DNA of 64,000 bases from Asterionella formosa (GCA_002256025.1 NKIB01009726.1:1-64000), one strand, 5' to 3'. Shown: positions 7,340 to 61,687, numbered from the stretch's first letter. The notes: a model not told the origin generated them from the sequence alone. Numbers and translations are program-made.

Positions 7340-8317
7340 AATGTAACAAAAGCGGTACAGTAAATCTCGTAATTGGAGTATGCGATGAACCATGATGGCC
7401 ATGACATCCAAGTATACGAGAAAGGTAGCCTTTATCATGGTTAAGCACAAGGATAACAATTAAGGTCGTTGATTTAGTCTTCCCGTCGGTTGTGATTGTG
7501 GGTCGTGTTCCCATTTAATTAACAGGATGTAGACCGCCGGTACATATACGCACCTGGCAATGCTCCTTGTAGGAGAAGCTGCTGTAATGGTGCATTATGA
7601 TAGAGTACATGTCAACAAAGAAGCAAGTAAATCATTATCGTCTTAGAAAACCAATACTTGTGAATACCGGGAGAGTTAGTGCATAAAAAGTACCAGGTAC
7701 CAGTACTGTAATAAAAATTAAAACATCATACCGGTACTATGCATCATATCCATGATAATTGTGTATGAATTATATCAGTGGGGAAATTTATGGACGATAC
7801 ATAATTACTATATAGATAGCGGTACATGAGCAATAGTAACCTACATTCTTTTACCGGTATGTCTGTCATGTGATGTACATAGAAATATATGTATATACAA
7901 CGGTACACTATACTATTATTCCATAATTCCATACGGATGGCTGCACAAAAAAGCATTGTACATATATGTACACGCAGAGAGATGTCAGGTAAGATAGGTA
8001 CCAGGTGTCTCGTACAGAAACAGTCTCAATAGAGTTCTTCTATAATTCTGATGACGATGAGATAGTAACGTACCCTGGTACCATGGGGCACTTGACACCA
8101 GGTACCTGCTACATACCGGTACTTGTATCACTTCGGTTTGCATGTCATGACTCTGTCACACTGATTGTTGCCTGTCAACAGCAGCTTGTTCTACCGTCAC
8201 TCGTCCCCTGTCACAAACACGAAACGATGTGTGAGGTGAATTACTAACTGCTGATGCTGCTGATTTGGCTGGTGGTTGTCACGTCCCCCACATAACAAAG
8301 GAAATCAAAATAGAACT

Positions 8318-9907
8318 ATGAAAGAGTTTGCAAGCTGGTTGCCATGGCCATCGTTTAGCGGAGTAACGGAACGAAACGACACACAAACGCGAAGGCTGAC
8401 GAATCAAATGCGAGAAGACAAACCGGGCAAATGGAAACTGAAAGAACTTGAAAGCCTTCATCCATTATTCCAACAGGATCGCATTCAATTCAACCGACTT
8501 GTCGCCAAATTCCTCCAAGAACATCCTGATTTTGCCAGAGAGCCACATTTCTTTGTTCCATATCTTGAGGAGTACCTGTTGTTCCGTATGCTTTGCTACA
8601 AGCCTCCGTTTCATCTCGTACAGCTAGTCTATAGCCTGTATCCTCCCGCCTTGTACGAACCAAACGCATATCACAGGTCAGCTCTTCACCGTGCATGCCA
8701 GTTTCAGGCTAGCACTGCAGTAATACAATGGTTGCTGGATAAGCAACCGGAAGCACCTATGATTGAGCCTAGCCCTTTATTTCTTTCGATACATCCTGGG
8801 ACACACCCTGATTCCATTGAACTATTAATCAAGGCATATCCTACTGCTCTGGTAACCTCATACGATGGAGACTACACAGCACTGGACCAAGCCTTCAATG
8901 AAGGTCTGGCACCATCTGTAGTCAGCACAATGATTCAACACTACCCAAAGTCAGTGCTAGATCTGAACATGATTTCTGGTTCACCCATGATTTCCCCCGA
9001 GGTTGCTATAATCCTTACCTCCAATCACCCAAAAATTAGAGTTTTGAATATTTCTCACATGCGACTGTCTCAAGCCGCTTTTGAATGGGCATGGATTAAA
9101 TTGGCTTCAAACACAACACTGTTGGAATTCATTCAAGATATATCGTCGATAGAAAGAAATTCCCAGTCCCTTTCTGAATCGTTGCAATGTATGCTCGCTA
9201 CCAACACTCACATGAAGAAATTATCATTTGTAAACGGGATCAAAAGCCATGCCTTGGGTTTGGCAGTGTTGGAGGGACTGGCTCAGAACGATTCACTCCA
9301 AGACCTTTGTTTTCACCAAGGCCTCAATGAAAGTAGCGTGCATTCTTTGATTGACCTTGTCTCCCACAAGCCAAATATTTCGACGTTTACTTTGACCGAA
9401 ACTAGTATTGGCACATCAACTGCAATATCATCACTTGTGCATTTGCAATATCTAGATCTATCGAATTGCGACGCTGGTCCACCACTTGCAGCACCACTGG
9501 CTGCATTACTTGAAGCATCAAACAATCTTCGTGTCCTTCGAGTGGCAAACAATCGCATTTCTTCGGAAGGGACAATCATTATTGCAAACGCATTAAAGAG
9601 AAATGCAAGTGTTGTTGAAATAGACTATCGAGGGAATAACATTGGTCAAAAGGGCTGGTTTGCCGTGGTGAAGGTGTTGCGAGATTCTAATTATACCATA
9701 CAAGAGTTTCGTCTCAGTGATCAGGAAGAAACTGTATTTGAAGACTACTATTGTTCATTGAACCGTGCAGGCCGTAAGCATGCAAGTGATGCAACAATAG
9801 AAGACTTTGTAGAGCTGCTTGTCAACACTCCAAGCTTTGATATGCAACATGGACTACTCCGGCATGTTCCACACATCTGGTGTAGTAATATATCGGAATT
9901 TCAGTAA
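8318..9907 (+). CDS. Ankyrin-like plus RNI-type LRR protein, paralogue of 3880-5520
   Basis: Shares EEYL, LHRAC, LDLSNCDAGPPLAAPLA and NNIGQKGW with the upstream gene. Ends in LNRAGR...LLRHVPHIW. Confidence 0.85.
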   Translation: MKEFASWLPWPSFSGVTERNDTQTRRLTNQMREDKPGKWKLKELESLHPLFQQDRIQFNRLVAKFLQEHPDFAREPHFFVPYLEEYLLFRMLCYKPPFHLVQLVYSLYPPALYEPNAYHRSALHRACQFQASTAVIQWLLDKQPEAPMIEPSPLFLSIHPGTHPDSIELLIKAYPTALVTSYDGDYTALDQAFNEGLAPSVVSTMIQHYPKSVLDLNMISGSPMISPEVAIILTSNHPKIRVLNISHMRLSQAAFEWAWIKLASNTTLLEFIQDISSIERNSQSLSESLQCMLATNTHMKKLSFVNGIKSHALGLAVLEGLAQNDSLQDLCFHQGLNESSVHSLIDLVSHKPNISTFTLTETSIGTSTAISSLVHLQYLDLSNCDAGPPLAAPLAALLEASNNLRVLRVANNRISSEGTIIIANALKRNASVVEIDYRGNNIGQKGWFAVVKVLRDSNYTIQEFRLSDQEETVFEDYYCSLNRAGRKHASDATIEDFVELLVNTPSFDMQHGLLRHVPHIWCSNISEFQ

Positions 9908-11850
9908 AGATGATGTGCTAATTTTTATCAATGTTATTTGTATCATTCCATACCCTAGTACACTCTAGTTTGGACCATGCATCCAGCCAATGCACAGCTA
10001 TTAGACTTTGCAGTGATGGCAACTGGTCTCAGCAACTAAAATTTTTACAACACACAAAGCTTATTAACAAAGAAATGCAGTGTTGGGAACAAATGGGCAG
10101 GGGGGAGGGGTCCTATTATATCACATCACCGCTCTTCTTTTGTGCTGAAAGGATGTGAATGCAGGAGCTTGCGAACATGTTTTGAATGCCAGACTGAAAT
10201 TTTTTTGCTAACCCCCTACTTTCTTCACGCTTTGGGCTGCGCTGACAAATTATGGTATGGTTCAGGTACAGTGGATTTGTAATTCACTCAAAAGTTGAGG
10301 AGACGTCTAGGCTAATAAGCTAGTAGCTACAGGGAGGCTTAATTCTTTACACAAAATCAATTTACTGTGACTTTTGTTTACTTCCTTTTGCTTGAGACAT
10401 TTGCAAATTGCCCAAAATGAGCCAGTATATTGGCATGCTTAGATACAATTTGAAAATTTGATATTCTCGAGGATCCTATGTAAAATAGCAAAACTGTGAT
10501 CATTGGTAGTTTGATATTTATCCATATTGCAGCTTCAAGTGGAAGGGGCAGTCCTAGTAAGCAAAGCGGCAAGGGCCGCCAATATGGCAAGTTTTATTGT
10601 TAGCCGCAGCTAAAGCAATGGATAAAACATATGATTTGAACTTAGTTTACATGACATGCCAATCATTGTTAAGAAAGGTTGTTCGGATTTATAAATAGGC
10701 AGTAAATGCTTACGTACTCATAGTGTTGCATTGTGCAACTCATTTAAATCACTCCGGAATATTTGTTGAGGCACAAAGCTTGCTGTCCATGTGAAATTGC
10801 GAAAATTGGATATTATCATGCTTACTCCATTGAGCTGGCTGCATCACCTTTTATATAAGGAAAACAGTAATATTCTTCATTACATAAAAAAATTAATGTA
10901 GTGTTATTTAGTATGGCTAGGATGATGTCATTTTGCTTTTGAAAATAGCTATTAGTTGTAGCGTAGTAAAGGGAAATTAATAAGCAACGCTTGTCTCCAT
11001 CACAACAAAACATATGCTGCCAGACACAGAGTATATAAATGAGTATTCCACTAATGTGAGCTTAAATTATACTTCACTGGACACCATACTCTCATTATCA
11101 CATCGAATATATATGCATATCTTGGCCAAAAGGTCAATATGTATGGATATCTTTGTATTTCATAACCTCAATATAAAATGACCAATGTGAGTGATGACTG
11201 CCTGTCGAATATTCAAATATCCCTTGCTACATCAGCCAGAAGAATGTGCTGATGATGAAACTGCAGAATCATGCTGTGTTGTGGTACATGAAATGTTAAT
11301 AAATAGGAAAAGAATGTTTCTTTCATGAGTGGCAGTGACATTAAGTTTGGTTGCAACTACCAGGATGCTGGAACAGAGGGAGTAAAAAATATACAACATT
11401 TCAAGTCGGCAGGGAGAGCAAGATGAAGTAAATAGCAGTGGTGCCATACCATGCATATTACTTGTACAGTAGGAAGCAATATCTTAATTTTTGTCAAGGG
11501 TTTCAAATGCAGCAACCTCAAGTGATAATTACCAGTAAACTACCAGTTGTATCACCGTACATATATATCGTAGGAAGAAAGCATCGGTTGGTCGACGGGC
11601 TTTGCCGGTACCTGGTACCAGGTACCTGGTACTACCTGTTATATCTACCTGTAGCTGCTTCCTGTTTTCTTCGAAGAACTTGGCCATGATGATGAAATGC
11701 ATTACCGGTATACTTTATCCCACCCGGTATGCATTCCTTTTTCTATCACATGTACAGAACCGCTGTATACATACAAGGTATATGATTAATCATTATAATA
11801 CTACTACTGTTACATACATTTCATTCTTCTTGTTGTGTTTTCCATCCATC

Positions 11851-12099
11851 ATGTCATCGTCAAATACGAAAAGCGAACCCAAGAAAGGAGTTAGTACCAG
11901 CACAAAGGAACCTCTGATTGAAGCTATCGAAGAAGATGACGAATTTGAAGAGTTTGATCCTGCCAAATGGGACGCACACGATGAAGATGCCGAAGATGCT
12001 CAACAGTGGCAGGACAACTGGGACGATGATGATATCGAAGATGACTTTACCAAAAATCTCAGAGCAGAGCTTCAGAGATCAAGTGGAGGGAGCAAGTAG
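11851..12099 (+). CDS. SEM1: 26S proteasome subunit SEM1/DSS1
   Basis: EEDDEFEEF and [22 protein letters not shown] are the DSS1/Sem1 signatures. ATG at 11851. Confidence 0.95.
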
Positions 12100-13496
12100 A
12101 TAATGTGCACTTGCAGCGGACTTTTGTGTGGTGCTCGCGTCATTGTTCGTCCTTGAAGGTCCTTGTCAAGGATTTTTCAAGGGCCGGAGAATAAGCAAGC
12201 AACGCTGTCATCGTCGGAACTTGAATGATTTGATAGAAGGATCCAGCATATGATTATTATATAACTTACTATAGAGGAAGAAATGTAACTTACCGTGAAG
12301 ATTTGGGTTTTCCCAACTGCCGCCGTGCTGCTGCAATGTCATGGAAGCAGGGTTTGGTTGGATGTCCAGCACATCGTCTTGCTTGCGTAACCAGCGGTCC
12401 AGTTACACTGAGACATGTAACTCAGCCAAGAATTAACTTTGCCGAATTTAAGTAACTCACCAGCTAACACGTATTAGCTAGTAGGCTTGAACGATGCTTG
12501 CAAATAAGGGCTGTCTCGGAGGCCCACCACAATATCACCTACTTGTTAGTATGATTTGGATGAGACGATTCGCTTATAGCAATCTGTTGTTCGTCCTTTT
12601 CACTGACTACTGTTCCCATAAATTGTTTTGTAGACACACAAGACTAGCCAATGTTTTAAATGTTCGACAAAGTCAAGAAGGGATATTGAATTAGATTTCC
12701 TTCTGTTTGCCCAAAAACTCAGGACTATATTACAGAGTGATTTATTAACAGATGGTTTAATTAAAAGCTCGAAACATAAAGGGTTAGCAGTGCTGTACAC
12801 CATCTCATCTGCCTGTCTCACACTGATGGACTTGAAAGGAAGTAGATGAAGCTGCAAAGAAATACATGATGCTCCCCTTGATGATATCCCACCTTCCTGG
12901 TACCAGTTACAAAAAATGTTTTTACCATTGCGGAGTCTCCTGCTGTGCATCATGCATTGCTAGAAAAGCACATCATATGTACAGCCACAAGAAAAAGTAC
13001 CTGGTACCTGGTACTGTGCATGCAAACGCGCACAGTTTCAAAATACTATCTTACCGTATATACAGCTGGTTCAAGTAAAGCCTAGGTATTCCGTAAACTG
13101 TACACAGTGCTGGTATGGTCCAGAAAATAGTTGATAAACCCAAACAATTGTGTGCACTTAACGCGCATGTTTGGTAGACTGCTACCAGTACCAGGTTGGA
13201 GTACCAGATACCGGTACCTGGTATTCCGTACCGTAGTACCAGGTACATAGACTACTACAGGTTGGTAGGGTTAGCATTGCTGTATGTATGATGTATACGG
13301 AGAAAACTACCGGTACCGGTACACGGTATCCGGCCTCCTTGTCAATCTGTTCATGCATCAAGATGAGATTGGATCACAAAGATCGCGGCGTTATTCTGAT
13401 TGCTGCTATAGGAGTGCTTGGCAACAAAAATCTTGAGCAACTCATCCACACCAGCCATCGCCCATATTTTTCAATCCAATCCCAGTACATATAGCC

Positions 13497-14652
13497 ATGA
13501 AGATTGCGCTGACTGTATTTGTTGCTTCTGCAGCTGTGCTGCGCCCCATTCACGGATTTTCTCTGTCACCGCCAAAGATGGTCAGTGGCATCGCGTCTAC
13601 GGCCAAGCGTGTACGAGATTCGCTCCTTTCCAAGGAGAGATCACGAGAGGACCTCAAAATTGGAATTGCTGGATTCTACGACCGGTCTTCCAAGCTATGG
13701 GAAGAAGTTTGGGGTGAGGTGAGTTCCTGTCGTGGTCAGGGAGTGTGCATGCATTGGAGGCGACACTGAAACCAAAACATCATTTCACAATTATAGCATA
13801 TGCACCATGGATACTACATCCCAGAAAATCGAACAGACCATGTACAGGCCCAGATTGACTTGATCGATGAAGTCCTGAAGTGGGCTGGGGTTGAGAAACC
13901 ACCCACCAGTGTTGTGGATGTTGGATGTGGCATTGGAGGATCCTCAAGGCATATTGCCGCCAAGTATAACTGCAAGGCCCAAGGAATCACGCTCAGCCCG
14001 TATCAAGCGAACAGAGGCAATGAATTGGCCAAGGAGCAAAATATTGAGCAGCAGGCGTCCTTTCAGGTAAGGACGCATACACGAACATGAGTGATTAGTG
14101 TTGAAACCAAACCATTCGCTATGTTAACCAGTCGTCTTTCAGGTCGCTGATGCCCTCGACATGCCATTTGAGGATAATTCGTTTGATTTGGTCTGGTCTC
14201 TGGAATCTGGTGAGCACATGCCCGATAAGAAAGCCTTTGTCAATGAACTATTCCGTGTCGCAACTCCAGGCGGTCGCATTATTATTGTCACATGGTGCCA
14301 CCGCGATTTAGAAATTGGGGAAACCTCCCTCAACAACAAGGAAATAAAGCTATTGGCCAAAATCAATAGGGCTTACTATTTGCCACGCTGGTGCTCGGTG
14401 AATGACTACGTGGAGTTGTTGAAAGCACAGGGTGCCACAGATATCAAGCGTGATGACTGGTCCTACATCATCGCCCCCTTTTGGAAAGCTGTTATTAAAT
14501 CATCACTCAATGTAAAGTCTGTTTGGGGGCTGTTGAAAAGTGGATTCTCGACGCAGCGTGGAGCATATGCTATGCTACTTATGCTTCGTGGATTCGACAG
14601 AGGGTTGATTAAATTTGGATTGATTACTTGTACAAAGCCTGACAACAAGTAA
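13497..14652 (+). CDS. VTE4: Gamma-tocopherol methyltransferase, plastid-targeted; exons 13497-13718, 13797-14066, 14143-14652
   Basis: After splicing: IAGFYDRSSKLWEEVWGEHMHHGYY, VDVGCGIGGSSR, SLESGEHMPDK and IIIVTWCHR. Signal peptide ends IHG-FS. Introns are GT-AG and in phase. Confidence 0.93.
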
Positions 14653-16101
14653 GATTTAAAATAGAGTAAAACTGAAATACTGATACTGTGGCAGACTCCA
14701 AGTGACGCGCTTGACTTGTTTTGGGGCACAGCATGGTGATATGTTGTTCATACTATGCCAAACAACAAAGTTGGGTGATCACATATACTGCGAATGAAGC
14801 CCCAGCTCATGAGAAATGGGTGATAGCTTGAACACCAACTTGAGTCTTGCAGTAAAAATCCCTAGAACAGTCTGGTCCAGCCTTGAGGCATCATCTAGAT
14901 CAATTATTTAATGAATGCACCTTTCAGTTGGGAAAGGCATTTGTATACATGGGGTTGCTAAGCCTCCATCCACATCCCATGTAATCATCATGTACCAGTG
15001 CAGTTGTGACATTTTTCTCTCAGGAAGGTCCAGTAATGCACATTTAGTGTGCTCCTTTTCAATTTCGACTCCTTCCTGATGATTTGTGCCATGCCTGCTG
15101 TGTGAGATATGTAGGGTGGCTCTTGATTTCAAACTTGCTGAAGTACTTGATGAAGCCATGATTTTTTAAACAGATGATGCTTTTCTGAAAAATCACGCCA
15201 AATTGTCTTCCAGTTCTGAAACAATACTGAGTTTGCTGAAAAACTGCTGAACAGCAATCAGGAAACATTGTTGAAATGCTGAATCATGACTATATGTAGC
15301 TATAGCCATCGTACTTGGAGTATCAACCAAAATTCAAATATTGAGCAAATGAATGATATTAATTAACAGCTAATGGAAGATTAAAATAAATTTGAAATGA
15401 AGCCATGTACCGGTAAGCTAGCCTATGGCCTGCATTCTTGGAAATAGATTGAAATTAGGACTCCGGTTCTTTGTTCGAATTTATCGGACTTGCTTTCCAG
15501 GTATTCCTACATGCTAAATAATAGTCGACCGGAGTACGGTAGGTACCAGGTACCGGTAGTTCTCTACCGGTAAAAACATGATAGCATTTCATTCAGCCTG
15601 TCCATGCGTGCTCGACATACCGGTAGTCGTGATCATGTTTCGAACAACAGCAGCCAATGAATTCAATCATGGAAACATGCATGATCAAATGTGCGCAAAT
15701 GCATGACAAGTGCCTGTGCCGGTAATACCGTGAGTATATTTGTCACAACAGCAAATACATACCGTAAGTACACTTTACAGCAAATAAACGTGTACCTGTG
15801 AATACTGTAGAAAATATAATTCCTGTCTCTACCTGGTACCTGGTGTCGTTCAGTACCTGGTACCCTGGTACCAGGTACCTGCTTGGACCGGGATAAAGTG
15901 ATCAGTAGGTACACGACAAGTTACCATGGTACCAGGTACCATGTGCTCCGAGTGCCAGGTAATTTATAGGAAGCCATCATCAGCCACCATGCTAATAATA
16001 AGCACGCGCAGTATCACAGCATCCACATTTTTTTGTTTTAGCTAGTATGAGCCATTAGAGCGATTGTTCTCATTGACACCACCCACCACCCACCACTCAC
16101 C

Positions 16102-17700
16102 ATGACGACTGCTAGTATAGCGACCATCGCTGACTTTACCTGCATAGAATCACATCCTTACGGAGTACTTCCTGGAGGAAACGTTTACATAGATGGATCA
16201 GAACCAATAAAAGCGCAACGATCGCTCCTCCCATCTGATGAATTATGGCAGAATGTGTTGAGCTTCTGCGATGGAGTGTCACTGGGAAGGTTCGTGCAAA
16301 CATGCCGGGATTTTTATGTCGCAGGTCATCAGCCCGAGCTGTGGAGAGATCTAGTGTTGAGAGAACTCAATCAAGAGCCTTTGATCTTGGACTTCTGTGG
16401 TCCGACCTGGAAGGATACCTTCGCACAACGGCGATGCACTCGAGTCGTTCCACCGCCTCACGTGCCAATGGCAGTGCGAGGGGTGTATTCTGATTTTTAC
16501 TACCGAACTCATCTCTGTCGATCCTTTCAGATTCCGGAATCATGGATGCAACCGACAACTAGTGGTGTAGATCGAGTACACGATATTTCAATGCTAGATT
16601 TTTTGACAAACTACGAACAGGCCAACAAACCAATTGTTTTGGCTGGAGCTGCCAAGACATGGAAGGCATTACAGAAATGGACATCAATAGATTACCTTAC
16701 CAAAATGACCAAGGGAAAATATTTTAGAGCTACCAGTGGAGCAGCCCCTCTCCCTGCACAGTTCTCGCTACAATCATATTCGCAATATTCATCGTCGACA
16801 ATTCTTGAAGAATCTCCACTCTACTTGTTTGATCGAACCGCTCTTCTAGACACACCCTTACATGACGATTACTATCCAGACTTGCAACGTACATGTCCTT
16901 ACTTTGATCCAGCCCGCATTTCAGAAAACGGCCACGATTTAATGTCCCTCCTTGGTGAAGGGGCCAGACCGGACCACACATGGCTCATTGTCGGACCTCT
17001 ACGATCGGGAAGTGCCTTTCACATGGACCCCAATGCTACACATGCTTGGAATGTTTCCATCGTTGGTCGGAAACGATGGATATTTTACCCACCCGGTGTA
17101 ACTCCACCGGGGGTGCACCCATCGCCCAATGGGGATCATGTTGCCATGCCCATTAGTTTGGGGGAGTGGATACTGAATTTCTGGAACGAGCATGTGGCGA
17201 GATATAGAGACGTTCCATCTCGGCGACCTATGGAATGCACAGTGGAAGCGGGTGATATAGTGTTTGTGCCGCATGGATGGTGGCATATGGTGATTAATTT
17301 GGATTCGACCAACATTGCAGTGACACATAACTATGCGAGCAAAAGCAATTTGTCGACCGTGTTGAGGTTTCTTCAGTTGAAGGAAGATCAGATCAGTGGC
17401 TGTCGTGATCGCCAGGAGAGCATCAAGCCAGAAGACTTGTATAGAGAGTTCTGCAAGGTACTCAAAACGAGCTACCCAGAGTGGGTAGAAGAAGCACAGC
17501 AAAAGGCAAACGCTGGATGGTCCTGCGCAGCGTGGAGGGACGATACCAAAAAAGAAAAGCCTAAGTCAAAGCAATTTCTTAACGGAAAGCGCCGACGAAT
17601 TGAAGAGGAGTCCAATAATAGCATCATGGCGAAGGCAAAGACATCAACAGCATCCGACTCTCCCACGGCGACTACTGGATTTAGTTTTTCATTTCTATGA
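16102..17700 (+). CDS. F-box plus JmjC domain protein (JMJD6-like 2OG-Fe(II) oxygenase)
   Basis: LPSDELWQNVLSF F-box; PLYLFD; GSAFHMDPNATHAWN (HxD); FVPHGWWHMVINL. Confidence 0.9.
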   Translation: MTTASIATIADFTCIESHPYGVLPGGNVYIDGSEPIKAQRSLLPSDELWQNVLSFCDGVSLGRFVQTCRDFYVAGHQPELWRDLVLRELNQEPLILDFCGPTWKDTFAQRRCTRVVPPPHVPMAVRGVYSDFYYRTHLCRSFQIPESWMQPTTSGVDRVHDISMLDFLTNYEQANKPIVLAGAAKTWKALQKWTSIDYLTKMTKGKYFRATSGAAPLPAQFSLQSYSQYSSSTILEESPLYLFDRTALLDTPLHDDYYPDLQRTCPYFDPARISENGHDLMSLLGEGARPDHTWLIVGPLRSGSAFHMDPNATHAWNVSIVGRKRWIFYPPGVTPPGVHPSPNGDHVAMPISLGEWILNFWNEHVARYRDVPSRRPMECTVEAGDIVFVPHGWWHMVINLDSTNIAVTHNYASKSNLSTVLRFLQLKEDQISGCRDRQESIKPEDLYREFCKVLKTSYPEWVEEAQQKANAGWSCAAWRDDTKKEKPKSKQFLNGKRRRIEEESNNSIMAKAKTSTASDSPTATTGFSFSFL

Positions 17701-17749
17701 TTGCTCGCGACTCTAGATGGTGTATTAGATACGGCACTGCTGGTGTGCT

Positions 17750-19073: not shown

Positions 19074-19098
19074 GAGCAGGGAGCAGGGAGCAGGGAGC
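19074..19098. repeat. Short (GAGCAGG)n heptamer microsatellite
   Basis: GAGCAGG x3 plus GAGC read directly. Confidence 0.8.
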
Positions 19099-19558
19099 GA
19101 GGATGTCACCCTGGTACCAGGTACTGTACCTGGTACATCATACCAGCAAGCTGCGGTAATTTTGCTGGAACTAAAGCTTTAGCTCTCTTTATCCCAGATT
19201 GAAATGTTAGTTTAAGCAAAATGACCGCAACTTGCAGGTACCACTATTTCAATTTGTGGTAAATGAGAAATTAAGCTTTGTTTTTCTCGTAGTAAGATCC
19301 GTCTTTTACCGCAACTTCGTCCCTTGATACCGTGAACACATAGTAGGCATATTCTTTGCCAGTTCGGTGTGGAATATTGTTAAATTCTCCTCGGTTTGAA
19401 ACCAGTTCAACATTCCAAACACGCACCAAAAGAGGAGAGTGCATTTCAGAGGCCAGAAAGAAGCATTGATCCGTATTTGTTAACATCCAGGCAAAGATCA
19501 AACAGAGGAGTACAACCGACCACATAAATACCGTCATCACAACATTGTATTGGTCGCA

Positions 19559-21863: not shown

Positions 21864-22259
21864 TGTCACTGAAAGGATTCTGTTAAGTTTTGATGAAGTT
21901 TTGATCCACTGTTCACTGCTCGCTCATCAGGTGTGCCAAGTGGGCCCTCATCATTGTTACTACATAACAAAAAAGGGATACCGGTATTCGAATACATGAT
22001 ATAGTACGGACAGGTGCCGTGTGCGTATACATGCGACCACAAGAATTTGGGCATTTTTCACGTATACCGGTATTGAAGTTGAGACATCACGGATGTGAAA
22101 TGTGAGGATATTCAGTGGAGTACCGGTATACGCTCACATTATTATGTATATTTATCGTGCAAAGAAAATATTATTTGGTAGTTGTTCACAAAATCATCTT
22201 TATCATTAATAATTGGTGAAATGGGTATATGCCAATTTATTCGTCCAAATGTGGAAACA

Positions 22260-24400: not shown

Positions 24401-24770
24401 GCGAATCATAGTACCGGTACTGGTATTGCATGTGCATCCAGTGTGGCCGGCGTAAGTTTGCAACAACCTGGTGCAGATCAGGCAAATCAAATGGACATAA
24501 GTAATTCATGTTGACCAATCATATTGTATATGTGGAAGCGGGCACTTACAATGGAATTTGTTGGACAGGAGATTTTAGTACAAAAATTCCGGCACACAAC
24601 TACTATTCCGATGATGACGTTTTGGCTCATAGTGATTCTGATACCGATATTTTGGCGACCATAGAAAAGGCGATTTTGTCGAGTTTTTGGCCAACAATAG
24701 CTCAATGTTGGCTGGGTCTGAAGACAATTTAGATACATGGGTAACTTGCAAATAGCACCAGTATATAACT

Positions 24771-24899: not shown

Positions 24900-26116
24900 T
24901 CCTATATTCTGACAATATATAGAGTGGACCTACACCCCTACTTTGTCCGATGACTGTATGTAAGCATATGGAAAGGGTGTGTATTGGTGAAAGCTCTGTT
25001 GAGCGTTATACATATTTACTTTTATTTGAAAAGTATGTGTTTGATTAGTCTGACTCAATATTATTTTATTAACCCTACCTTGAGCCAGGGGTTCAAATGC
25101 AGAAACCTTAACCATGCATAGCGGTAGTTGCGTACCAGGTAAGAGTACCAGGTACAATCACTTTGAGTCGCTCAGCATACGTACTGGTATTTAGCTGGAC
25201 CTGGTACCAGGTTCAGATGTACCGGTAGTTCTTTTGTCGGCTATATGTACGAGGCAACAAGAACTGTTACCAGGTACTGGTAAGTAGTCCGATTACCTTA
25301 CACGTTTTGTCAGCAGCTGTCGTTTTGCTTATTCTTTGGTGCATCAATTCCGCATCCGTTGAAATTTCGTATTGTTTAGCAATCTCATACAGACATAAGC
25401 ACCAGTACTAACCGTACCTGGGTACCTGGTTTCTTGTACTCTACATCGCAGCACACCATATACCGTACACATACCTGGGTATGTTGGCTTGACGGTCTAC
25501 TTATTATGAAATGTAATGCATCTATATATCTCTGATGCTGGCGTTTTTATTACCGGTATACCGGAATATGTATCGACCGATCCCGGTACCAGGGTAAGTA
25601 CCTTTTACCATGTACCAGGTGCGTAAATGAATAGACATAGACCTCGCCTGCCAAACTCCTTTCCGTAGATTGTCTATTACATGGTACCAGGTACCAGCAA
25701 TTACCAGTACCAGTGCTCTGTAGAACCTGTACATGATAGAAGCACCTGGAACATGGTCTAAAAAAAGAAACAGGGTTCTGTAGTAAGTACCTGTCACATA
25801 GTGTACGACTGAGAGGTCCCATGAGTTTACGCACGGGCCGCGGACGCAGAATTCTCTTTCTGTGGGCAAAATGTGTACCGTACTGTACTCCCTGGTACCT
25901 GGTACCAGTACCACAGATGATGACGGGTTGACGACGTGTTTAGCATGAATTCGCACAGTGTGAGAGTTGTTCCGGAAATGAAGCAATTTCGCTGATTGGT
26001 CTATTGTGGTGATGCACAGCACTGCCAGTACCGGAACAGCTAAACAACGAATTTGCTGATGTGCTCACACTAGTGCCCATAATTTTCTGACCTCGCAAAA
26101 AACCAATACCGTCACT

Positions 26117-33200: not shown

Positions 33201-33366
33201 CCAGGATTCCGTGTTGACTACTTAGAATCTAGCAACAAGCACGAAACCAATTAATCTGGCTGCTCATCTTCGAGTCAGTAAATATTGCGTACGTGTATGA
33301 ATTTACCGGTATATACCCTAGACACTGACCCTTGTAACAGTAAAGGTATACCGGCACATCCAACGC

Positions 33367-34729: not shown

Positions 34730-36482
34730 TAATATATTCACAGTGCGAACGCCGTAGTCTATTGTAGTAAGGGGAATATAGGAATGCTGATAGGGCAAAC
34801 CTTCAGTTCAACAGTACGCACGTATAAATGAGTACAGTTTTACAGTACAAACGGCATAATTCCTATTGTAACAAGAAGGGAAAGAAGACGGAAATACTGG
34901 TAGGGCAAACCTACAGTCTCACACTTGTAACAATGACCTGGTTCTATTTGTTTGTATGTCTGAGTGCAGCGTCAAAGACCCAAGGTACCGGGTACCTGGT
35001 AGCTAGTATGTATCATAGCCTTGTGTAGGCCTTGTATACCGGTACCTGGTCCCAGGTACCTTTTCATTAGCTGAGGTCAACGCACTCAGCACCACGATGC
35101 CATTCCAGACATATTCACAATACAGGTATGTGATCCATATATTTTGTATCTTCAGAATTCATACGAAATATAATTTATGTAAAAGAATAAGAGAGTTCAT
35201 ATTGGATGCTGGCAATATAAAAGAATAAGAGAATTTATGCTTTGCTCATGCACCCAGTTGCTGACAACCACATCGCTTCGATTTTCTCTATCAATTCATG
35301 CCCGATAGCACTCCGAAGATTTGCTGTCGATAACACACACTAATTCGAATAGATATTTAGTTTAGCATTTCAAATTCAATATTAAATGATTCATTCCATA
35401 CTACCTGTTTTGTGCTCATTAGGGCTGGCTGTTGCTAGCATCACAAATCATGTCGCGATATTTCTCGAGATCCATTTCGCTCCGTTTTTCTCAATCAATT
35501 AAGGGCAGATCATTGCAATCATAAAATTTGTAGGAATGTTGTCTTTCGCAATGATTTATCCTCTAAAAATTTATCTTGACCTTTTAAAATATTTATTTGT
35601 AACATCAACTAGTCCAGCCTTGGAAATAACCGTATAATTTTGAACCATCACATGAAACCACGACAAGTAATCTTGTTCAGTATAATAGTAAATATTATTT
35701 ATGTGAAGTGCACAACCATAAACTGCTGTAGCATGAATAAACACACCACAAATATCCTTAGTAGCTATTCACAAAGGAAGATGCATGTCGTAAATGAATT
35801 AGCCTCAAGAGCAGGACTTACTTGAACTTTGAAATGAATTATTTGAAACATCAACTAATTCAGTCTCGAGTTCAAAGTTTTTGTGAAATCTTCACATGAA
35901 CCCGTTAAAAGTAACCTTTTCTACGGGAAGAGTAGTAGCATTAATTCATGTGAAGTACCACATAATTAACACTCCTACGTAGAGCAAATTTCGAAAAGTG
36001 GCGTATTTCGCGACTTTGATGTAGCCTACCGGCACAAGTCATCATTCATTGTCATTATGTCAGCAACAAATACAACAAATCGCTGACAATTTGATGACAG
36101 TGATCATGACATCTTTCCCTCATTTGTTATTGTATACTAGTCAAACACAGAGAATCGAATAGTCGCTAGCGTATTGTAAACGATTTTAATTTGTAGCTAC
36201 TAAATTTGTTTAGTTTAGATATAATAGAAACAGTAGCTAAAATCGAAAACCCACAAGTAGGCTCAACAATAATGACGATATATCGATGCCTAGTTGTCGC
36301 ATTGAAATGCGTCTTATTTGTACATATGCGCCGTTCCACAATGCTCCATTGTCTACAAGGGATCAGGCCCAAAACAAAAATTGATTGTACAATATGGACA
36401 AATAAACCCAGTTGTGTCTTTTTCTTTAGGCCCAGCAAGTGCTATTATTGGATGGCTTTAATGTACTATTAAATTTAAATGA

Positions 36483-38220: not shown

Positions 38221-38569
38221 GTTGCCAAACAAGAAGGAGGATGAACGTAGCTAAGGGGCTGCTTCGTAGCGAATCAAGGCCTTCCTTGTTCCTTCTGGAA
38301 GCTAGATGAAATACAATCAAACTGCAATGGTATTATTCTTGAGATGACGGACAAGATGGATGAAGAGTCGTTGCTATCGTCGACTGCAGTGTTCTAGTGC
38401 GGATTTTTCATGGTTGTTATTAGCCCTTGTAAATACACTACCATACCGTATCAACGGGTAGCTGAGCAAATAGACAGAGTAACGGCAGGCAATACCGTGT
38501 AATAATCATAATAGTACCAGGTACGACACCGGAATTACGATTGGTCTCCTTTCGATTGGTCTCCTCTAT

Positions 38570-39170
38570 TTAGGCTGAACCTCACCGTGCCCGAAATACG
38601 AAGATCGAATGTTGCGAAGCTATCGCGGCAAAATATTCGATCTTCGTATTCGGGAAATTTTATGGCCACCTCACGGTCCCGAGGAGAAAATAGTACGTCA
38701 ATCCATACGTCATATGACCCCGATCTCGTGAATTGAAATTATTTCCTAAATGAAAATTGGGACCATATACTCCAGTGTGCTGGACTCCCCTACCGGTATG
38801 GATGCTAGACCCCCCTGTGCATTTTTCTCGAGGTGAAACCAAAGACCCAATAATATTCTTGTCATGGACAATTTAACGTGAAGAACTCTCTCATTTTTGT
38901 TCACATCACGGAAAATGAAAAAAGTTGTAATATATTTAATAAATCTTACACACAGGCCCCCCCCTCTGACGGTGCCCGAATGCATTACGAAGGTTGAGTC
39001 GGCCGGATACCTATTGGGCGTTTAATCTTCGTATTTGGGTCCCATAATGGCTAAATAACTCGCAAATCCTCCCCCTGATTACGAAGATTTATCTTCGTTC
39101 GCCCGAATATTTCGGGGTCATCTCCGGGAGTTCCTGGAAAGTCCGAATATTGCGAATATTTGTCCGAACA
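38570..39170. repeat. Element built of nested palindromic TACGAAGAT/ATCTTCGTA and GTGCCCGA motifs
   Basis: CCCGAAATACGAAGATCGAAT (about 38590-38610) is inverted to ATTCGATCTTCGTATTCGGG (about 38635-38654). Similar motifs recur near 38970-39040 and 39078-39120. Confidence 0.6.
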
Positions 39171-39605
39171 TGCCGACCTGATATGGATGGTACCTGGTAC
39201 CATACCTGGTGCTCGTAGTACCAGGTACGAGGACCTACCAGGTACCTGGTAGTTACTGCCTGGTTTACCTGGTACCTGGTACCAGGTACTGGTCCTCCGA
39301 GTATCACAGCATCGTTGCAATGGTCATATTCTCATATGTACTCCTACATATCACGTTTGTTAGTACAGGTAGATACGTCGAAACGGAATGTACGTTTTGT
39401 CCGTCATCATCAATATATTATACGAGGATAGGCACGAGCGATGATCCTTCGGTACCTGGTACCGATACCTCGTACTTGTACCATATACCGGTATGTAATA
39501 TACATGGTCATTTTTGATGAATGCATGAAAAACAGGCAGATATTCGCACTCTAGGAACTTCCACATTCGCCTACAAGTGAATCGTTTTGTTTGTTTTAAC
39601 ATGAC

Positions 39606-41737: not shown

Positions 41738-42860
41738 TAATAAGCAGAAATATCTGTTCCTTGCCTTACGTCCTTGGTAGTAATTAGCAGCGGGAACCCT
41801 GGATTATAGTCCTGACGCGATTACAATACAGGGAGTTGTTCATTCCCACAAGGACGGTAATAACTTAGGTTATATAGCATGACTCAGCTGCCGTAAGCTT
41901 CTCGATTCCATGATGACCTCCCAGGAGAGGAATCGTTACCAGGTATCAGGTAGCATCGCCAACCTGTGCATCCAAGTATAATACCGGTACTATCCTCATG
42001 CCGGGAACGGTCTAGAAAATGACTGGTCCCTGACCCGCAATTATATTCAACCAGAGGGAGCACCTGGTACGTGGTACTGGTACCATAATACGCCTCCATA
42101 ATATTACATATCACGCATGCATAGCAACAAGCTCACAAATGGAGTATCGGTACACTACAATATGATACCGGTATGTACCGGAATATTTCATATTACAATT
42201 ACGCACAGTTGCTGTTGACGAAGTACCGGTACCTATCTAACGGACCGCCCGCCTATTTTTGTTTCTTGATTGCTGCCTGCTTTGTTATCAAATATCATAT
42301 ACATATATTAATACATCAATTGTGAATTATTTGGATTATTCATACAGTAGCGACCGTTGAGATTGATTTCTTACGTAACTTCACTTACCTACCAGTAATT
42401 ATCGTGGTTGGACAGCATTGTGCCTGCAGTTCTAATTCCCCAGTACATAGTAAACTGTTGAAAGTGTCAATTTCGATAATCAATCATGAATATATATATA
42501 ACTTTTTCACTATTGATATATGAATATCACATGACCAGTATACATTTTCTTTTCATACACATATCTGTATATCGCTCAGCGCCTGTGGTTTTATTCCGCC
42601 TGCGATTTTGTTTGTTACTTCTCTCCTCTGTGATGGCTGGTCTGTTTTCATCGATTGACAAAACACCCCTTTAAAACACATGCGCAGTATTTTCCTTTCA
42701 TTAGATGGATCAATTCATGTTTGTGCGACATTAACCACTTTTATATTTTTTCCAACGATCGGTCCAAGTCCAAACGGAAAATCGCTACATATTGAGGAAG
42801 CACAAGAAAACTTCTCAGCCATCGACTCAGTCGGAGCGGATCGTTTTACTAAACATATCA

Positions 42861-52825: not shown

Positions 52826-54190
52826 CTTGATGGGAATGGCGACGTATGATGTTGATGAACTACTGCTGCCACAGGTTGTGGAATACTCCTTGCTGGAGAT
52901 TCAGATCTTGGTTGATTTTAAGGCGAGCAATAACTAATTGAGAGTGATGTCTTAAATCTTGACACTTCGCCATAATAATACATTCACACATTTATAAACG
53001 TACATATAAGTCATTCACATTTCTATTATTTCTTATTGCTTTTTGCCTATTTATATTCTTCTGCCCTTTTTCTTTGTGAAAGCAATAACAGCATGATCAG
53101 CGAATCAAAACACATCACCCGTGATATTCACGGTTCACATCATCAAGAGCGAGGAGATGAATATGATAGGAGTATTGGTGGGTATATACCATATTATCCT
53201 ATGAAATGTAATAGCCCTACCATACCTGGCTGTTTAGTACTCTTTAATAGGTATGCATTTCGACATCATTTCCCAATTGTTTGGCATTGACTAAGAACTA
53301 TTCAATAAAACTGCTGGAATGTACTAACTCAACAATCAACAACTCTCCCCACAGTTCCTGATGGTTGAAATGGGAGGAGGAAACTAAACAATCTACAGAT
53401 TATGTCAGCTATTTTCGCACTTGCTCCCTTAGGGACTACTACAATATGCAAATCAGGTAGAGAATGCAGGAATTAAATCCATCACTTCACAAGGCTAGCT
53501 AGCTAGCAAGCTACTCAAGTAGCAACCAAGTAAGCCATTCCCCAGCAAGTTGCCTTCTAAGCACTAGCTGCCATAGACTTCCATAGCTGCATGATAATTT
53601 TCCGATTAGCTTTATCCAATTCTAAACTGTGTTAACATTGATTAGGATAATTTTGTAACAAAATAATTCATACTCTTAACTGATGAATCTACTTAGCCTA
53701 ATCCCTACACTCTCACCTTTTTTTGTTAGAAAATGGCTCTCCATTGGTGTGCATGGTCCACGTCTTGGGTCAAAGAGAATGTACTTCATGAAAGACTTGT
53801 CTAGGCTAATGAATACCTTTTACAATGAGACCCTCCTAAATGTTAGTTAGTGCCAAACAGTCAGATTTCCACCAAATGGATGCAACAGGAGTTCAAATTT
53901 GGTTCTATCAGTAGCTATTATCATAGCTAGTAGTGGAAGCAGCAAGTGTTGCTACTAGTTGGCACAAGGATTAGTGTGCAACTGGTGTCTTTACAGTTAT
54001 TCTTCATGACAATGGAACTGTCGCTCCTTTATTGTATCACTGATACTGTGTGTTACTCGAAAAGATATCCAGATGGTATCATTGAAACTGAACAAAACCC
54101 GGATGTTGGCACCAGGTTGCATGTCATCGACATCAAATGACGGCGCACTTCTAAATTTGCCAATCCAATATAAATAGTTGCCTTCCCACC

Positions 54191-56154: not shown

Positions 56155-56595
56155 CCTTTCAAAGAAGATCTTAAATCATATGTACTTACAGTTCTGAAGT
56201 AAATTTTATTGTCATACCGCCCATATTTGTTCCTCGATCCATCCTTACATTCGTGCATGTAAGTATATAATACCGGTAAATAGGTGATCATTTGCAAACA
56301 TAAATATGTGTGTGATGTATGGCTCAGCCATATCACCTCCTCAAGCTCGTATATGTTTGTCTGTATAATTATCGCTGGATTGCCACTTTGAGGATGATCG
56401 TCAACATAATGTTTGCTTGTCGATGCATCTTCAGCATCGCTTTGATATTATGATCATCCATCAAATTCCTAGTACCTGGTACCTGGTACCGGTAGCACAG
56501 CACCGAATCAAGTCGTCACAACGACGATTATTCGAGCTGTCTCCGATTGTCAAAACTCCATCGTTCCGCTCGGAAAGCAACTGAAGCTTGTCATC

Positions 56596-57303: not shown

Positions 57304-58466
57304 TTACATTGTCATGATTTGACGCATCATGTTTCTCGCCTGACCTTCATAGCCACCAAACAAGACTTCGTGATTTCTGTATGTGAGAGGTGAACATGAG
57401 AAATTTAGTATACCAACGGCAATACAACGTCATCGCATTGTGTCTGTTTCAAAAGGAGGACTGTACTCACAAAATATGATAGAGATTGTAAACAATTCTC
57501 CTTTTCTCGTGGCCTGCGGGAAGTGGCCACTCAGATTGATACCCTTCATAAAAGTCGGGTCCAAAGCCGCCAAAAAGGTAGGTCATGGCAATGTCGGATT
57601 CACGGTCGCCCTGTGGAAAGCGAGGGAAATGTTCAGAAAACAATGAAAAGGAGGTTCAAGACTGATTCACCAATACTCACATAGTAAGTGGCTGGATCAA
57701 AAATAACAGGAACTGTCGTTCCATCTTTTTCCCTCGCATACCCCTTATTGCCTCCCCATAAATCACCATGGAGGAGCGATGGGTCTGGCCTATGCGAGAG
57801 CAACTCTTTCGTCTTCACCCTTAAGTCATTAATGTCGCCCTTGTCAAACCCAGCATCATGAGTCAATTTGAGCATATGGCCAAGCCGATGCTGGTCCCAG
57901 AATTCAGGCCATTCATTGTGCCATCCATTGGGCTGATATGTGGCTCCAATGGTATTGTCGATATCGAAACCAAACTTTCCGTTGGGAGAAAAATGTTTGT
58001 GCATCTTTGCAAGGTTGATTCCGAGCTCCCGACCCGAGCCGCCACTACAAAAATGTAAATATTCGAAAGCAACAAAAGCTTGCTCTGTGCCGTGTGTACC
58101 ATATGCAACTGGTGTGGGTACCCTAACGGTATTGGTCTCACTCATGGCCTTGACCCCATAATATTCAGCTGTCAACATATCAGATGCACCATAGGCAGAC
58201 TTGATAAAATATTTGGTTTGAGTGGACTCATCCACCAGCACTGACGTGCTTGCACCTCCACCTCCAGCAAATCCTCCACCGGCACCGGCTCTCAAACTAA
58301 TTTGTTTTCCTAGCGATTCACTCACTTTTAAGGATACAGTTTCCAGGAAAGTACCGGTAGTCATTTGTAACCTCGTAGAGATGGTGGAACGCAAAGGGCG
58401 AGAGGGATGAAAGGCAACAGCTGCATATATTGAGTATGCCAATATCCAGAAAACGAAGATCGACAT
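57304..58466 (-). CDS. Fructosamine/ribulosamine 3-kinase family protein, plastid-targeted; exons 58466-57681, 57610-57471, 57376-57304
   Basis: FGFDIDNTIGATYQPN, PSLLHGDLWGGN, FDPATYY|GDRESDIAMTYLFGGF and YNLYHIL|NHEVLFGGY. Signal ends AVA-FH. Confidence 0.92.
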
Positions 58467-59641
58467 TGCACTTCAGGCGGCTTATTCATCGAACTGTTGA
58501 GGGCAAAAAAAGTGCATGTAACAAAATTTAACATGTACTCCGTATATCTGTGTCCGGTATGCCGAATATCTTTCATGTGAGTGTCGTTGTGCGATGGTGT
58601 GAGCGACCTTTGCTTTCGCTCCGCCATGCATGATACCAATCATATGCTGATGCTGCGCGCTGTGTGAGGAATATTGGTTCGTTTCACGAGGCTTGTGGAC
58701 TCGATTAAACTCCAACGAGTCGAATCATACCTTGCCACCTACCAGTAATCAGCTGATGGCTTCCGAAATTCAAGATTGACAACTTCTATAGAGATTGAAA
58801 TCTGATCTTTGAATCCATCCCATAGCAAAAAAGAATCTCAGTCAAAGTCAACATTGGGTGAAGGATGATTCTGTTCTGGGTGGTTCAATTGCAAGTGAGC
58901 AATACAATCAAGGAAGAAATGACTTGTCAAGTCCTCACAATTATAATTTAGAGGCCAACCACAGCCATGTATTTGTGAATAAGTGTGGTGCAAATGTCTC
59001 ACTTACTTCTTAAAATTATGTAGAACTTATTCTTACACCAATGCTACATGACAGGAATTCAACTTTTCCAAGGGAGAATAAGCTTACCACCTAGTATTTC
59101 AATATCCCTATCATCTCCCATTGCAAGGGTGCACAATCCATAGTCAAGTATCATTAGATGCTTGTCTGGCTTAAAATACTAAATTATGCTTGTTTATAAT
59201 TGTTCTTTATATACATAATTTTTTCATAGCTATGCAGCTTACCAGATTGCGCACAAAGGACAAGTGAACCTGAGAAAATTTGAAAGAGTCAAAGTGTCCC
59301 TGGAGAAACTTGAAGGATCGCTTCAAACAGCTACCAAGGGAGGGCGAACAAACATATCCAAACCAAGGAAAAGAAAAGAAAGAAAAGAAGCTAAAATGGG
59401 AACAAGTTTAGACTACAATGATGACACATGCAAATGAAAGAGTTTCCCAATAATTGCAGTGATAGAAATCAAACTCTTTCCAAGGAAGTAGATAGGATGA
59501 TGGCTGGCAACTTGAAATTTCATGAATTCTACCAGTTTCTATTGTCTGAAATAAATGATAAAGCTTATGTGTTATAGGAGTGGTAACTTCAACTTTGCCT
59601 TATCTTCGCCAGAGACTTTTGGTTCCTTTCGAGAAATATAC

Positions 59642-60814
59642 TTAGGATGAGCCATTAGTCAACTCCAAATCAGCTCGAATCAACACATGATCACTAGGCT
59701 CATCAGCATTTGGGAAGGGACCATCTGCCTCTTCTAGCTTGCAAATATTTCGTACTCCAGATACTTTCCATTCCTTGGACAAAAAAATGTAATCAAGAGT
59801 GTCAATAAATGGTTCTTGTTCCTTGGCTCTGGAGAAGTTGGTGAAGTCGGGTTCCTTGCCATTGAATTCCTTATAGGCAGATCGCATACTCGCCATTGTA
59901 CACGCCCACTCCATACCGTATTTAGGCGTAGGAAAGGTTGGATCTTCTGCTAAAAGTTGACCGGATGTCATCATTTGATAGGTTTCCGACAAGGGTTTGA
60001 TGTTCCAATCACCGGCCAGGACATATGGGCACTGATTTGTTGCAGCAATATCTTGTACATGTTTCGCCGCCATTTCAGCATGAATTGTCATGGCCATGGG
60101 CATATAGTAAGCACAAGGCATGTGGTAGTTGCCAATACAAAAGGATTGACCAGCCTTCTTATCCTTCAGAACAGCTGTCAAGAGTACATTGCTTCGACGC
60201 CCAGAAAACGTCCAGTGATCCTCCTTTGGCTCTGAAAGCAGTCCCATCAACTTGAGAGGCATCGCCCACAACGATTTTATATTATTAAATGCCAGTGTCG
60301 TCAAGCTCGCTTTCGGCGATTTGGGCCAGCCCCCGATTCGGTTGTCACTGAGATTCGAAATGTCAACATTCACTGTTTCGAAAGTTCCCACTGGATAAGC
60401 CAGAGCAACTCCCATGTAACCATTGAATTTTCTTCCGTACAAACCAGTGACCATGTGGTAACCCTTGTTGGCAAAGTATGTATGAAAGGCGCCGGCCCAA
60501 TCGTAGGATACCTCTTGGAGGCAAATGACACAATTGTCAGATGAGCTGATTTCTTCATCAAGTTTCTTGAAGACCTTTGGTAGGCGGTTGCTGGCGCAGA
60601 GATGGTCTGGGTTTAGCGTCGTATAAAACGACGGGTCGGCCAAATGAGAGGAAAGAACGTTGTATGAGACAACTCTCACGGCTAGTGCTGGCTTAGTTCG
60701 AAACACCATCGTGGATGCAGCTGAAAGCGTTACTGGAAAGGCAACAATAAGCTCGACAGTGAAAATGAGAATCAGAACCAAGAATATTATTTGCTCCTTT
60801 CTACGATTGTCCAT
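59642..60814 (-). CDS. CCR4/nocturnin-like endonuclease-exonuclease-phosphatase family protein
   Basis: VVSYNVLS, ICLQEV, AGDWN, DTLDYIF and PSDH motifs. Hydrophobic N-terminal segment; start uncertain. Confidence 0.88.
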   Translation of the reverse strand: MDNRRKEQIIFLVLILIFTVELIVAFPVTLSAASTMVFRTKPALAVRVVSYNVLSSHLADPSFYTTLNPDHLCASNRLPKVFKKLDEEISSSDNCVICLQEVSYDWAGAFHTYFANKGYHMVTGLYGRKFNGYMGVALAYPVGTFETVNVDISNLSDNRIGGWPKSPKASLTTLAFNNIKSLWAMPLKLMGLLSEPKEDHWTFSGRRSNVLLTAVLKDKKAGQSFCIGNYHMPCAYYMPMAMTIHAEMAAKHVQDIAATNQCPYVLAGDWNIKPLSETYQMMTSGQLLAEDPTFPTPKYGMEWACTMASMRSAYKEFNGKEPDFTNFSRAKEQEPFIDTLDYIFLSKEWKVSGVRNICKLEEADGPFPNADEPSDHVLIRADLELTNGSS

Positions 60815-61687
60815 ACATGCACATGTAGATATGGGTTTAACTGTCACAATTAGCTGCAAGGTTGCGACAATGAAATATGTATCATATACTAATGTTGCTT
60901 CTCAAATGTTAGCTGCTTCTCAAAAATGACAGATGCTCAATCGGATGTGGTATTTTTTGTTTCCCTCCATGATGCAGGTAGCGCGATGGCAGCACCACCA
61001 CCAGTCATAAGAAATGCACCGGCATTACTATTATACCGTTCAAGTGGTGCAAGGTACCTGGTACCAGGTACCTGCAAGTTGCGGTCATTTTGCTTAAATA
61101 AACAATTCAATATGGGGTACAGATAGCTAAATATTCAGGTTCAGCACGATTAGGCATCTTGTTAAATTCTTCTGCAGTCTGTCTGACTGCAATGCTAGCT
61201 CTTTCTAGACAAGCTCAGTTCTAATCCCACCTTTTTGTGAGCTTATTTGATCTATCTTATCGTTTACATGACCAATTATTAAGGTTCTCTTCCCAAATTT
61301 GTATATAGATATTCATTGTACTGTTAGACATTCAATTCTCAACTGATAACTCAACTCCACTCAGTTAGTAGAACATTCTCCATTAGAAAATTTACCTTGG
61401 TTTGCTGATATATTTCTTGGCAATCAATGCTGTTCAAAATCTCACCGCATTTCAATACTGGATTTTGCTGGAATATTATTCAAGATTGATTAGTTCGACT
61501 GAACTAAAATGCACGCAGTACCAAATCTTGACAGCATCTATCTTGTCGCTCAAATATTTTCAGAAATTCGATATTGCTGAAGTACACAATAATGCATTTT
61601 TTCTTGATAAAATAGCAAAATACATTTGAGCAGTTGTTAAAGAATATAATAGTATTATAGATGTGTTAGTTAATAGTATTATAGATG

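Follow-up and report, generated by a model that had tools for sequence, protein, structure and literature searches.

Along the first 64 kb of NKIB01009726.1, a 97-kb contig of the diatom Asterionella formosa (assembly GCA_002256025.1; these 64 kb are hereafter called the window), lie short palindromic units of the form TA-CCWGG-TA or TA-CCGG-TA, which join into chains by sharing their TAs and are densest upstream of genes. Very probably, these units are iterated excision footprints of resident cut-and-paste transposons of the Tc1/mariner superfamily (pogo-like), whose targets regenerate themselves. Four of the five footprint features tested were found: the change of TA into TA-x-TA, matching element termini, a TA duplication together with a transposase, and a target preference. 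The strongest link between units and elements is their class-specific match in flanks and termini.

Identity, abundance and register of the unit

Words were counted in the whole assembly (68.4 Mb in 15,436 contigs), with the reversed motif as control. TACCWGGTA is present in 26,886 copies (control: 902) and TACCGGTA in 28,528 copies (control: 1,718), i.e. a combined total of about 55,000 sites, or approximately one per 1.2 kb of genome. Under an order-2 Markov model on 308 kb of sequence, the observed/expected values are 48 for TACCGGTA and 39 for TACCAGGTA. An earlier note on this window had proposed a palindrome iterated throughout the genome, and these excesses over reversed controls and Markov expectation bear it out. 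The window itself contains 61 GGTACC, 33 TACCGGTA and 40 TACCWGGTA vs. 2 TACCSGGTA. Spacing counts display two peaks, with 0 or 1 base between TACC and GGTA, the single spacer base being A or T in 108 out of 121 cases. No GGTACCW triple was detected in the viral contigs searched.

The same note had parsed the arrays as (GGTACCW)n heptamers in which every unit is a KpnI site. This register is wrong, as the units are bounded by TA and GGTACC is only the junction between them; 46 of the 61 GGTACC in the window lie next to a TA-bounded unit, and the clusters at 21980-22130, 38515, 46005 and 56272 contain no GGTACC. With TA-x-TA parsing, chains such as TA-CCTGGTA-CCAGGTA-CCTGGTA-CTA appear as a mix of 7-, 6-, 8- and 3-base units. 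Most chains are short: 38 out of 60 in the window consist of a single unit and the longest has four, and in a count of 212 runs, 195 are single units. Long palindromes do exist, and the two that had been quoted (11607-11626 and 61052-61073) are both perfect, the 20-mer among them being found in 595 copies genome-wide (control: 0). Among the 2,186 exact three-GGTACC runs of the genome, just 952 (44%) are perfect palindromes, with linker orders TA (595), AT (357), AA (614) and TT (620). The linkers are therefore nearly independent, which agrees with slippage alone as little as with inversion alone. Since long palindromes enjoy no preference, the suggested cruciform role finds no support either. 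Finally, one-mismatch neighbours are above expectation (398 vs. 144 and 134 vs. 63), the mismatch falling mainly in the CpG of TACCGGTA; this excess, measured against expectation rather than against flanking rates, fits neutral decay. We also considered TACCAGTA as a one-sided footprint of four bases, which is ambiguous since it is also a CpG-transition product of TACCGGTA.

Indels at TA and the resident transposons

We surveyed indels by aligning loci of the A. formosa genome all-vs-all (11 metagenome loci being left out), with high-scoring segment pairs of at least 150 nt and 80-99.99% identity, indels of at most 14 nt and at most 3 mismatches in the 24 flanking bases; many of these loci had been picked for carrying the motif, a pogo element or a miniature inverted-repeat transposable element (MITE). 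From the 694 distinct indels identified between homologous stretches, TA/TACCGGTA accounts for 12 of the 35 six-base indels and TA/TACCWGGTA for 5 of the 27 seven-base indels. Further classes are TA/TACTA-TAGTA (43 events), TA/TAGCTA (15) and TA/TATA (5), the first and the last of which support footprints because they are among the Sleeping Beauty footprint types listed in the part of the source compared (10.1101/659086). For 11 of the 12 CCGG events and 2 of the 5 CCWGG events, the inserted unit is not a tandem duplication of adjacent DNA; single CCATGG, CCAGGG and CCSGG events likewise lack an adjacent template. Whole-unit indels at TA were also found inside transposon copies. The polarity is clear for one CCGG event, with one long copy against nine short homologues. 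Moreover, among the indels listed between runs, the TACCGGTA at 15618 is replaced by a plain TA in three of the four other runs (3 studies), the contig of the fourth stopping at 15619. The runs that contain the window are algal or freshwater metagenomes. All seven CCWGG-type indels (5 CCWGG, CCATGG and CCAGGG) are located at GTAC, whereas CCGG indels show at most a weak flank preference, and C is the next base after 94 of 144 CCWGG chain ends. A near-trio was observed in one TATATA run: locus L170 has it empty, in L107 a pogo element occupies the first TA, and in L045 the third TA bears a CCGGG unit.

The genome contains 93 matches to PF03184 (DDE_1) and none to PF13358 (DDE_3). Two pogo families end in TA-CCGT..ACGG-TA and a third in TA-CAGT..ACTG-TA. 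The empty paralogous sites of pogo elements hold one TA, and their CCG ends show little flank preference, at most a weak one. One of the two CCGT..ACGG families is represented by nine copies (L080-L088) with 99-100% identity, which is a very recent burst; several of these copies share the point at which they run up to the end of the contig or of the stretch examined.

Another family ends in TA-CCAG or TA-CCAC..TGG-TA (hereafter the CCA family), with 279 ends genome-wide at no more than one mismatch, and its one empty site holds one TA. Forty ends were taken from the 279, giving 35 distinct flanks, of which 27 continue with TAC and 14 adjoin a unit; by comparison, 25% of all TAs in the window are followed by C and 2.3% by a unit. 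A 4-bp GTAC duplication with CAG..CTG ends was also considered, and at one empty site it is inseparable from a TA duplication with a GTAC preference; the 8 flanks out of 35 that do not start with TAC argue mildly for TA duplication. The enrichment of TACCATGGTA (7-fold) and the absence of TACCTAGGTA agree with the prediction from CCA ends.

Searches with the CCA-family protein against Pfam and PDB sequences gave no hit, and hmmsearch against the pogo ORFs (open reading frames) was blank; hhalign detected a weak similarity to these ORFs (E 0.0011). An intact relative of the CCA-family ORF (90% identity) has a predicted model with a predicted local distance difference test score of 84 and a best Foldseek E of 0.006. 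This model best matches the catalytic domains of SETMAR, Mos1 and Sleeping Beauty (Z 10.7-11.8, the next fold class reaching 8.3), the top match (SETMAR, Mos1) having Z 11.8 and a root-mean-square deviation of 3.3 over 192 aligned residues. From this predicted structure, the CCA family would belong to the Tc1/mariner superfamily, with a mariner-type fold. Its transposase (L188:139-3041, L187:162-2596) has 99 relatives of 448-1029 amino acids with three invariant aspartates and no Pfam hit, the named ones being diatom proteins. The first 957 bases of the window are the end of a multi-copy element related to this family (tblastn match at 12-191; copies with 96% identity in L183 and L184).

The scars would form as follows. 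An element would insert at TA and duplicate it, the duplication being the observed part of the scheme. At excision, staggered cuts would leave three to four terminal bases on each flank, which would then be joined, as deduced from Sleeping Beauty and Tc1. Elements with CCG..CGG ends would leave TA-CCGG-TA, plausibly through CG overhang pairing, with CCSGG and CCG as minor forms. Elements with CCA..TGG ends would leave TA-CC(A/T)GG-TA, the ends overlapping at a central mismatch that may be resolved either way, and full fill-in would give TA-CCATGG-TA. The CCA family lands at G-TA-C; a scar at GTAC would thus become G-TA-CCWGG-TA-C, which offers two GTAC targets, so that chains would grow unit by unit, each with an independent W. 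Slippage would contribute some units, and all of them would later decay as neutral DNA, TACCGGTA chiefly at its CpG. A separate MITE with a CWG duplication would target the centre of TACCWGGTA.

This MITE of 88 bp, which lies at 19147-19234 of the window, has at least 742 exact ends genome-wide. A 3-base direct repeat flanks 30 of the 51 copies compared, always CAG (25) or CTG (5), and the reconstructed target is exactly TACCWGGTA in 18 of these 30 cases. In 19 out of 19 intact copies, the two ends have an identical W, whose identity changes independently of the element; CWG is therefore the target duplication of the MITE, which is a user of the units, landing in the centre of scars, and not their maker. 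The alternative of a TA-duplicating unit maker with CCWG ends at 19143-19238 was rejected. No clean empty site was found for the MITE among the loci compared, and one locus (L047) set against L152, L153 and L175 as a MITE/scar pair did not give a clean junction. Twenty contigs, 15 of them chosen for this purpose, yielded no autonomous partner, without any Harbinger-directed search. NuwaI, a PHIS / PIF-Harbinger element, likewise makes a 3-bp CWG target-site duplication, but its terminal inverted repeats (TIRs) usually begin with GGG and it was found in animals only, according to the passages compared (PMC4482050), while the diatom MITE ends in CAAG..CTTG. As the ends differ and no transposase is linked to it, we do not assign the MITE to NuwaI. 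In three other loci (L143, L148 and L150), a repeat of at least 300 bp shares the first 24 bases of the MITE, with no matching far end in the stretch examined.

Position relative to genes and competing explanations

Positions in the window refer to 22 gene spans set by hand, and 13 of these do not start exactly on an ATG. Within 600 bp upstream of genes we counted 30 TACCWGGTA and 19 TACCGGTA, vs. 3 and 1 downstream, 7 and 12 at distal positions and 0 and 1 in genes, respectively. A unit is located at most 700 bp upstream of 16 of the 22 spans, and one of the six others has its 5' end beyond the window. In 226 kb outside the window, analysed with crude ORF calls, the upstream and downstream counts are 22 vs. 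4 (p=0.001) and 35 vs. 6 (p=1e-5), with a density of 0.02-0.03 units per kb in ORFs. In both samples, the 600-700 bp in front of genes have a 5-7-fold higher unit density than the DNA behind genes. Clustering upstream of genes and rarity in exons, both previously claimed, thus hold. The most likely source of this 5' bias would be a tendency of elements to insert where promoter DNA is open, combined with the loss of intact insertions and frameshifting scars from genes.

Several observations weigh against a footprint origin. The approximately 55,000 units exceed the 279 CCA ends and 93 DDE_1 matches about 100-fold, so that the model needs a long or formerly much higher activity. No exact trio (one TA empty, filled and scarred) was found among the A. 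formosa loci compared, and only one indel event has a clear polarity. The indel fractions are inflated by the choice of loci, and three of the five CCWGG events are equally explained by slippage. The two long CCA-family copies compared have broken ORFs, and the 5-base scar geometry would be our derivation, not one published for this family. Pairs with the same linker are over-represented (1,234 of 2,186, or 56%; p=2e-9) and the AT order is too rare (357); a simple footprint model predicts neither. The 5' bias is unexplained by the present analyses, and the TAGCTA indel class does not share it (12 vs. 12). In the parts of the literature compared, clean excisions made up 8 of 94 in rice (PMC4423477), and the identical 8-mer was reported as a candidate promoter motif in Phytophthora (PMC3597505).

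TAGCTA, with a 2.9-fold excess and no 5' bias, forms a third scar-like class, and no TA-G..C-TA element was found as its maker in the loci compared. Six metagenome loci with JmjC homologues (L126-L131) contain long (TAC)n runs and mixed TAGCTA/TAGTA chains in place of CCWGG units. These chains have the TA-x-TA form of two indel classes described here, and plain slippage could explain them. All JmjC homologues that the metagenomes yielded are distant (11 loci, 76 kb, 43-61% protein identity, too distant to align); their loci contain a single unit, and some have (TAC)n or (TAGC)n runs.

Four other explanations were weighed. The units might be binding sites of a homodimeric transcription factor or general regulatory factor, with TACC half-sites and a spacer of 0-1 bp, selected in promoters. 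The 5-7-fold 5' over 3' bias in two samples and the palindromic form speak for this, as do TACCGGTA and TACATGTA, over-represented palindromic promoter motifs in the Phytophthora and Plasmopara reports as far as compared. As an origin, it is nevertheless improbable, since units come and go whole at TA even within transposon copies, which are unlikely places for promoter elements, at least one of them (15618) is polymorphic between strains, one-mismatch neighbours show CpG-type decay, and each class matches its own transposon ends and targets. Promoter marking as a secondary role on top of a footprint origin is possible, though in our own estimate doubtful.

It is quite improbable that the units are a 7-bp/6-bp microsatellite that grew without any transposon, through slippage during replication or through template switches at palindromes. 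Exact tandem duplications were seen (three CCWGG events and 1 of the 12 CCGG events) and same-linker pairs are in excess, but the other CCGG and CCWGG indels have no adjacent template, most units are single, and the linkers are near random, although slippage should make them identical and inversion should make them complementary.

A repair or recombination process that writes CC(W)GG at TA, transposons with similar ends merely favouring such sites, is very improbable. It would accommodate the missing trio, the numerical gap between units and surviving element ends, and the 15 TA/TAGCTA events with no matching element in the loci compared. Against it, two unit classes match two families in termini and flanks alike, and we know of no mechanism writing fixed CC(W)GG inserts at TA.

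Lastly, the chance of a site like the cyanobacterial HIP1 arising from methylation-directed repair, or of an assembly or adapter artefact, is practically negligible: a few short palindromes are indeed strongly over-represented and CCWGG and CCGG are methylase-type sites, but the units avoid ORFs and vary by indel, while HIP1 is frequent inside coding sequences too; several clusters are spanned, with few differences, by contigs from independent runs, which argues against an adapter or assembly artefact.

The last option of the earlier note, a sequence-specific expansion process, is supported. The arrays also relate to transposons, an outcome that it had counted as refuting, but in an unexpected way: between duplicated TAs, the units equal the end bases of TA-targeting DNA transposons that reside in this genome.

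Features of the window, known systems and meaning

The clusters and the two MITE copies of the window are given in the table. All 18 cluster intervals checked hold at least one TACCWGGTA or TACCGGTA. Of the regions described as array-free, 52826-54190 and 58466-61040 do hold none, while one lone unit was found above 61080.

Unit clusters and MITE copies in the window (hyphens in chains separate units)
Position	Strand	Feature	Details
7691..8121		Cluster between divergent kinase-like and LRR genes	Chain TA-CCAGGTA-CCAGTA 7691-7705; TACCGGTA at 7729, 7852, 8114
11609..11634		Four-unit chain TA-CCTGGTA-CCAGGTA-CCTGGTA-CTA upstream of SEM1	Includes the 20-mer of the earlier note
12998..13321		Chains upstream of methyltransferase gene	12998-13013, 13209-13223, 13229-13245, 13308-13321
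15544..15938		Chains upstream of JmjC gene	15544-15558, 15854-15877, 15922-15938; CCCTGG and CCATGG units among them
15618..15625		Polymorphic TACCGGTA	Single TA in contigs of 3/4 other runs
19113..19135		Two TACCWGGTA between divergent genes, directly left of MITE	
19147..19234	+	88-bp MITE, CAAG..CTTG ends	CAG direct repeat 19144-19146 / 19235-19237; sits mid-TACCAGGTA
21979..22128		Three lone TACCGGTA upstream of parvulin gene	No GGTACC
24409..24425		Chain TA-GTA-CCGGTA-CTGGTA within multi-copy repeat	
25130..25910		Cluster upstream of ORF without a name	Chains 25268-25282, 25896-25910
34984..35062		Cluster flanking repeat	TA-CCGGGTA-CCTGGTA among its chains
38512..39493		Clusters between divergent genes	38512-38523; 39216-39227, 39236-39251, 39266-39288; 39486
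41935..42235		Cluster between TPR-containing gene and LRR gene	
56271..56494		Units between divergent genes	Lone TACCGGTA 56271; four-unit chain TA-GTA-CCTGGTA-CCTGGTA-CCGGTA 56470-56494
61052..61074		Chain TA-CCTGGTA-CCAGGTA upstream of exo/endo/phosphatase (CCR4-like) gene	Runs into MITE end
61075..61161	-	Degraded second copy of 88-bp MITE	About 81% identical; far end decayed

The window contains more inverted-repeat or MITE-like elements (22319-23177, 31381-32283, 24759-24911 and 38520-39180) and a region (23500-25500) of very high copy in all four runs compared. Inverted copies of a non-coding repeat lie at about 1100-2600 and at 33350-34730 (79-100% identity by segment), the second beginning near a TA-CCGG at about 33350. 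Two copies of a dispersed repeat are located at 36520-36800 and 61690-61990, the first differing from its paralogues by a TA/TACTGGTA indel at 36677. No allelic contig was found for 7600-22400; elsewhere, four small contig pairs (C303/C288, C1376/C1411, C156/C986 and C400/C426) are 96-99% identical and resemble separately assembled haplotypes, from which polymorphism data could readily be drawn.

The following comparisons rest on the passages of the cited papers that were compared. Sleeping Beauty leaves the footprints TACAGTA/TACTGTA, TACTA, TAGTA and TATA, and Tc1 leaves taCATGta (10.1101/659086; PMC3520976). The likeness to the diatom units lies in the TA present twice with the terminal bases of the element between, the central base being either complement, and in minor forms with 0-1 base; the differences are the inner CCGG/CCWGG and the natural, genome-wide, chained and 5'-biased occurrence here, vs. 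single donor sites there. In intron 4 of the Triticeae beta-amylase gene, a Stowaway element left TIR remnants of 1-4 bp between TAs, and a new element sits at the TA of an older footprint (PMC1925063). This concerns one locus, whereas tens of thousands of sites are involved in A. formosa and the scar itself would regenerate the GTAC target.

In the oomycetes, another stramenopile group, the upstream regions of genes are rich in TA-bounded palindromes that equal the diatom units or overlap with them: M94 (TACCGGTA) and M93 (TACATGTA) in Phytophthora (Roy et al. 2013; PMC3597505), motif-1 and motif-9 (Seidl et al. 2012; PMC3520976) and streme-5 in Plasmopara (PMC10031896). There, they were interpreted as transcription-factor sites, and the passages compared describe no CCWGG chains. 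Seidl et al. weighed a Tc1 footprint origin for TACATGTA and dismissed it on abundance and conservation (PMC3520976).

HIP1, to which the arrays had first been likened, is also a short palindrome far above expectation genome-wide, and it was tied to cognate methyltransferases and modelled as gained via repair-driven substitution (PMC4390886). The analogy fails in that coding DNA is nearly free of the diatom units and homologous copies are distinguished by whole-unit indels at TA, not by substitution. In the open-licence literature, we found no description of such footprint chains in diatoms.

A broader idea, which we offer as speculative and consider unlikely, is that transposon scars are a main source of promoter motifs in stramenopiles: self-regenerating footprint chains would create dense palindromic sites, host factors would bind these and hold the DNA open, and further insertions would be drawn in, the oomycete motifs TACCGGTA and TACATGTA and TA-bounded intergenic repeats like the (TAGC)n of other diatom-like loci having the same origin. 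For A. formosa itself, footprints that are textbook knowledge at single donor sites would, if our interpretation is true, be among the most over-represented non-coding words of the genome, would carry the rule of their own growth and would serve as targets for a second element. De novo motif finding can mistake such scars for regulatory sites. Moreover, in contrast to the argument of Seidl et al. as given in the passages compared (PMC3520976), the diatom genome suggests that abundance is no argument against a footprint origin. The units would then document past transposon traffic as densely as a good fossil bed and would supply promoters with new variation by mutation.

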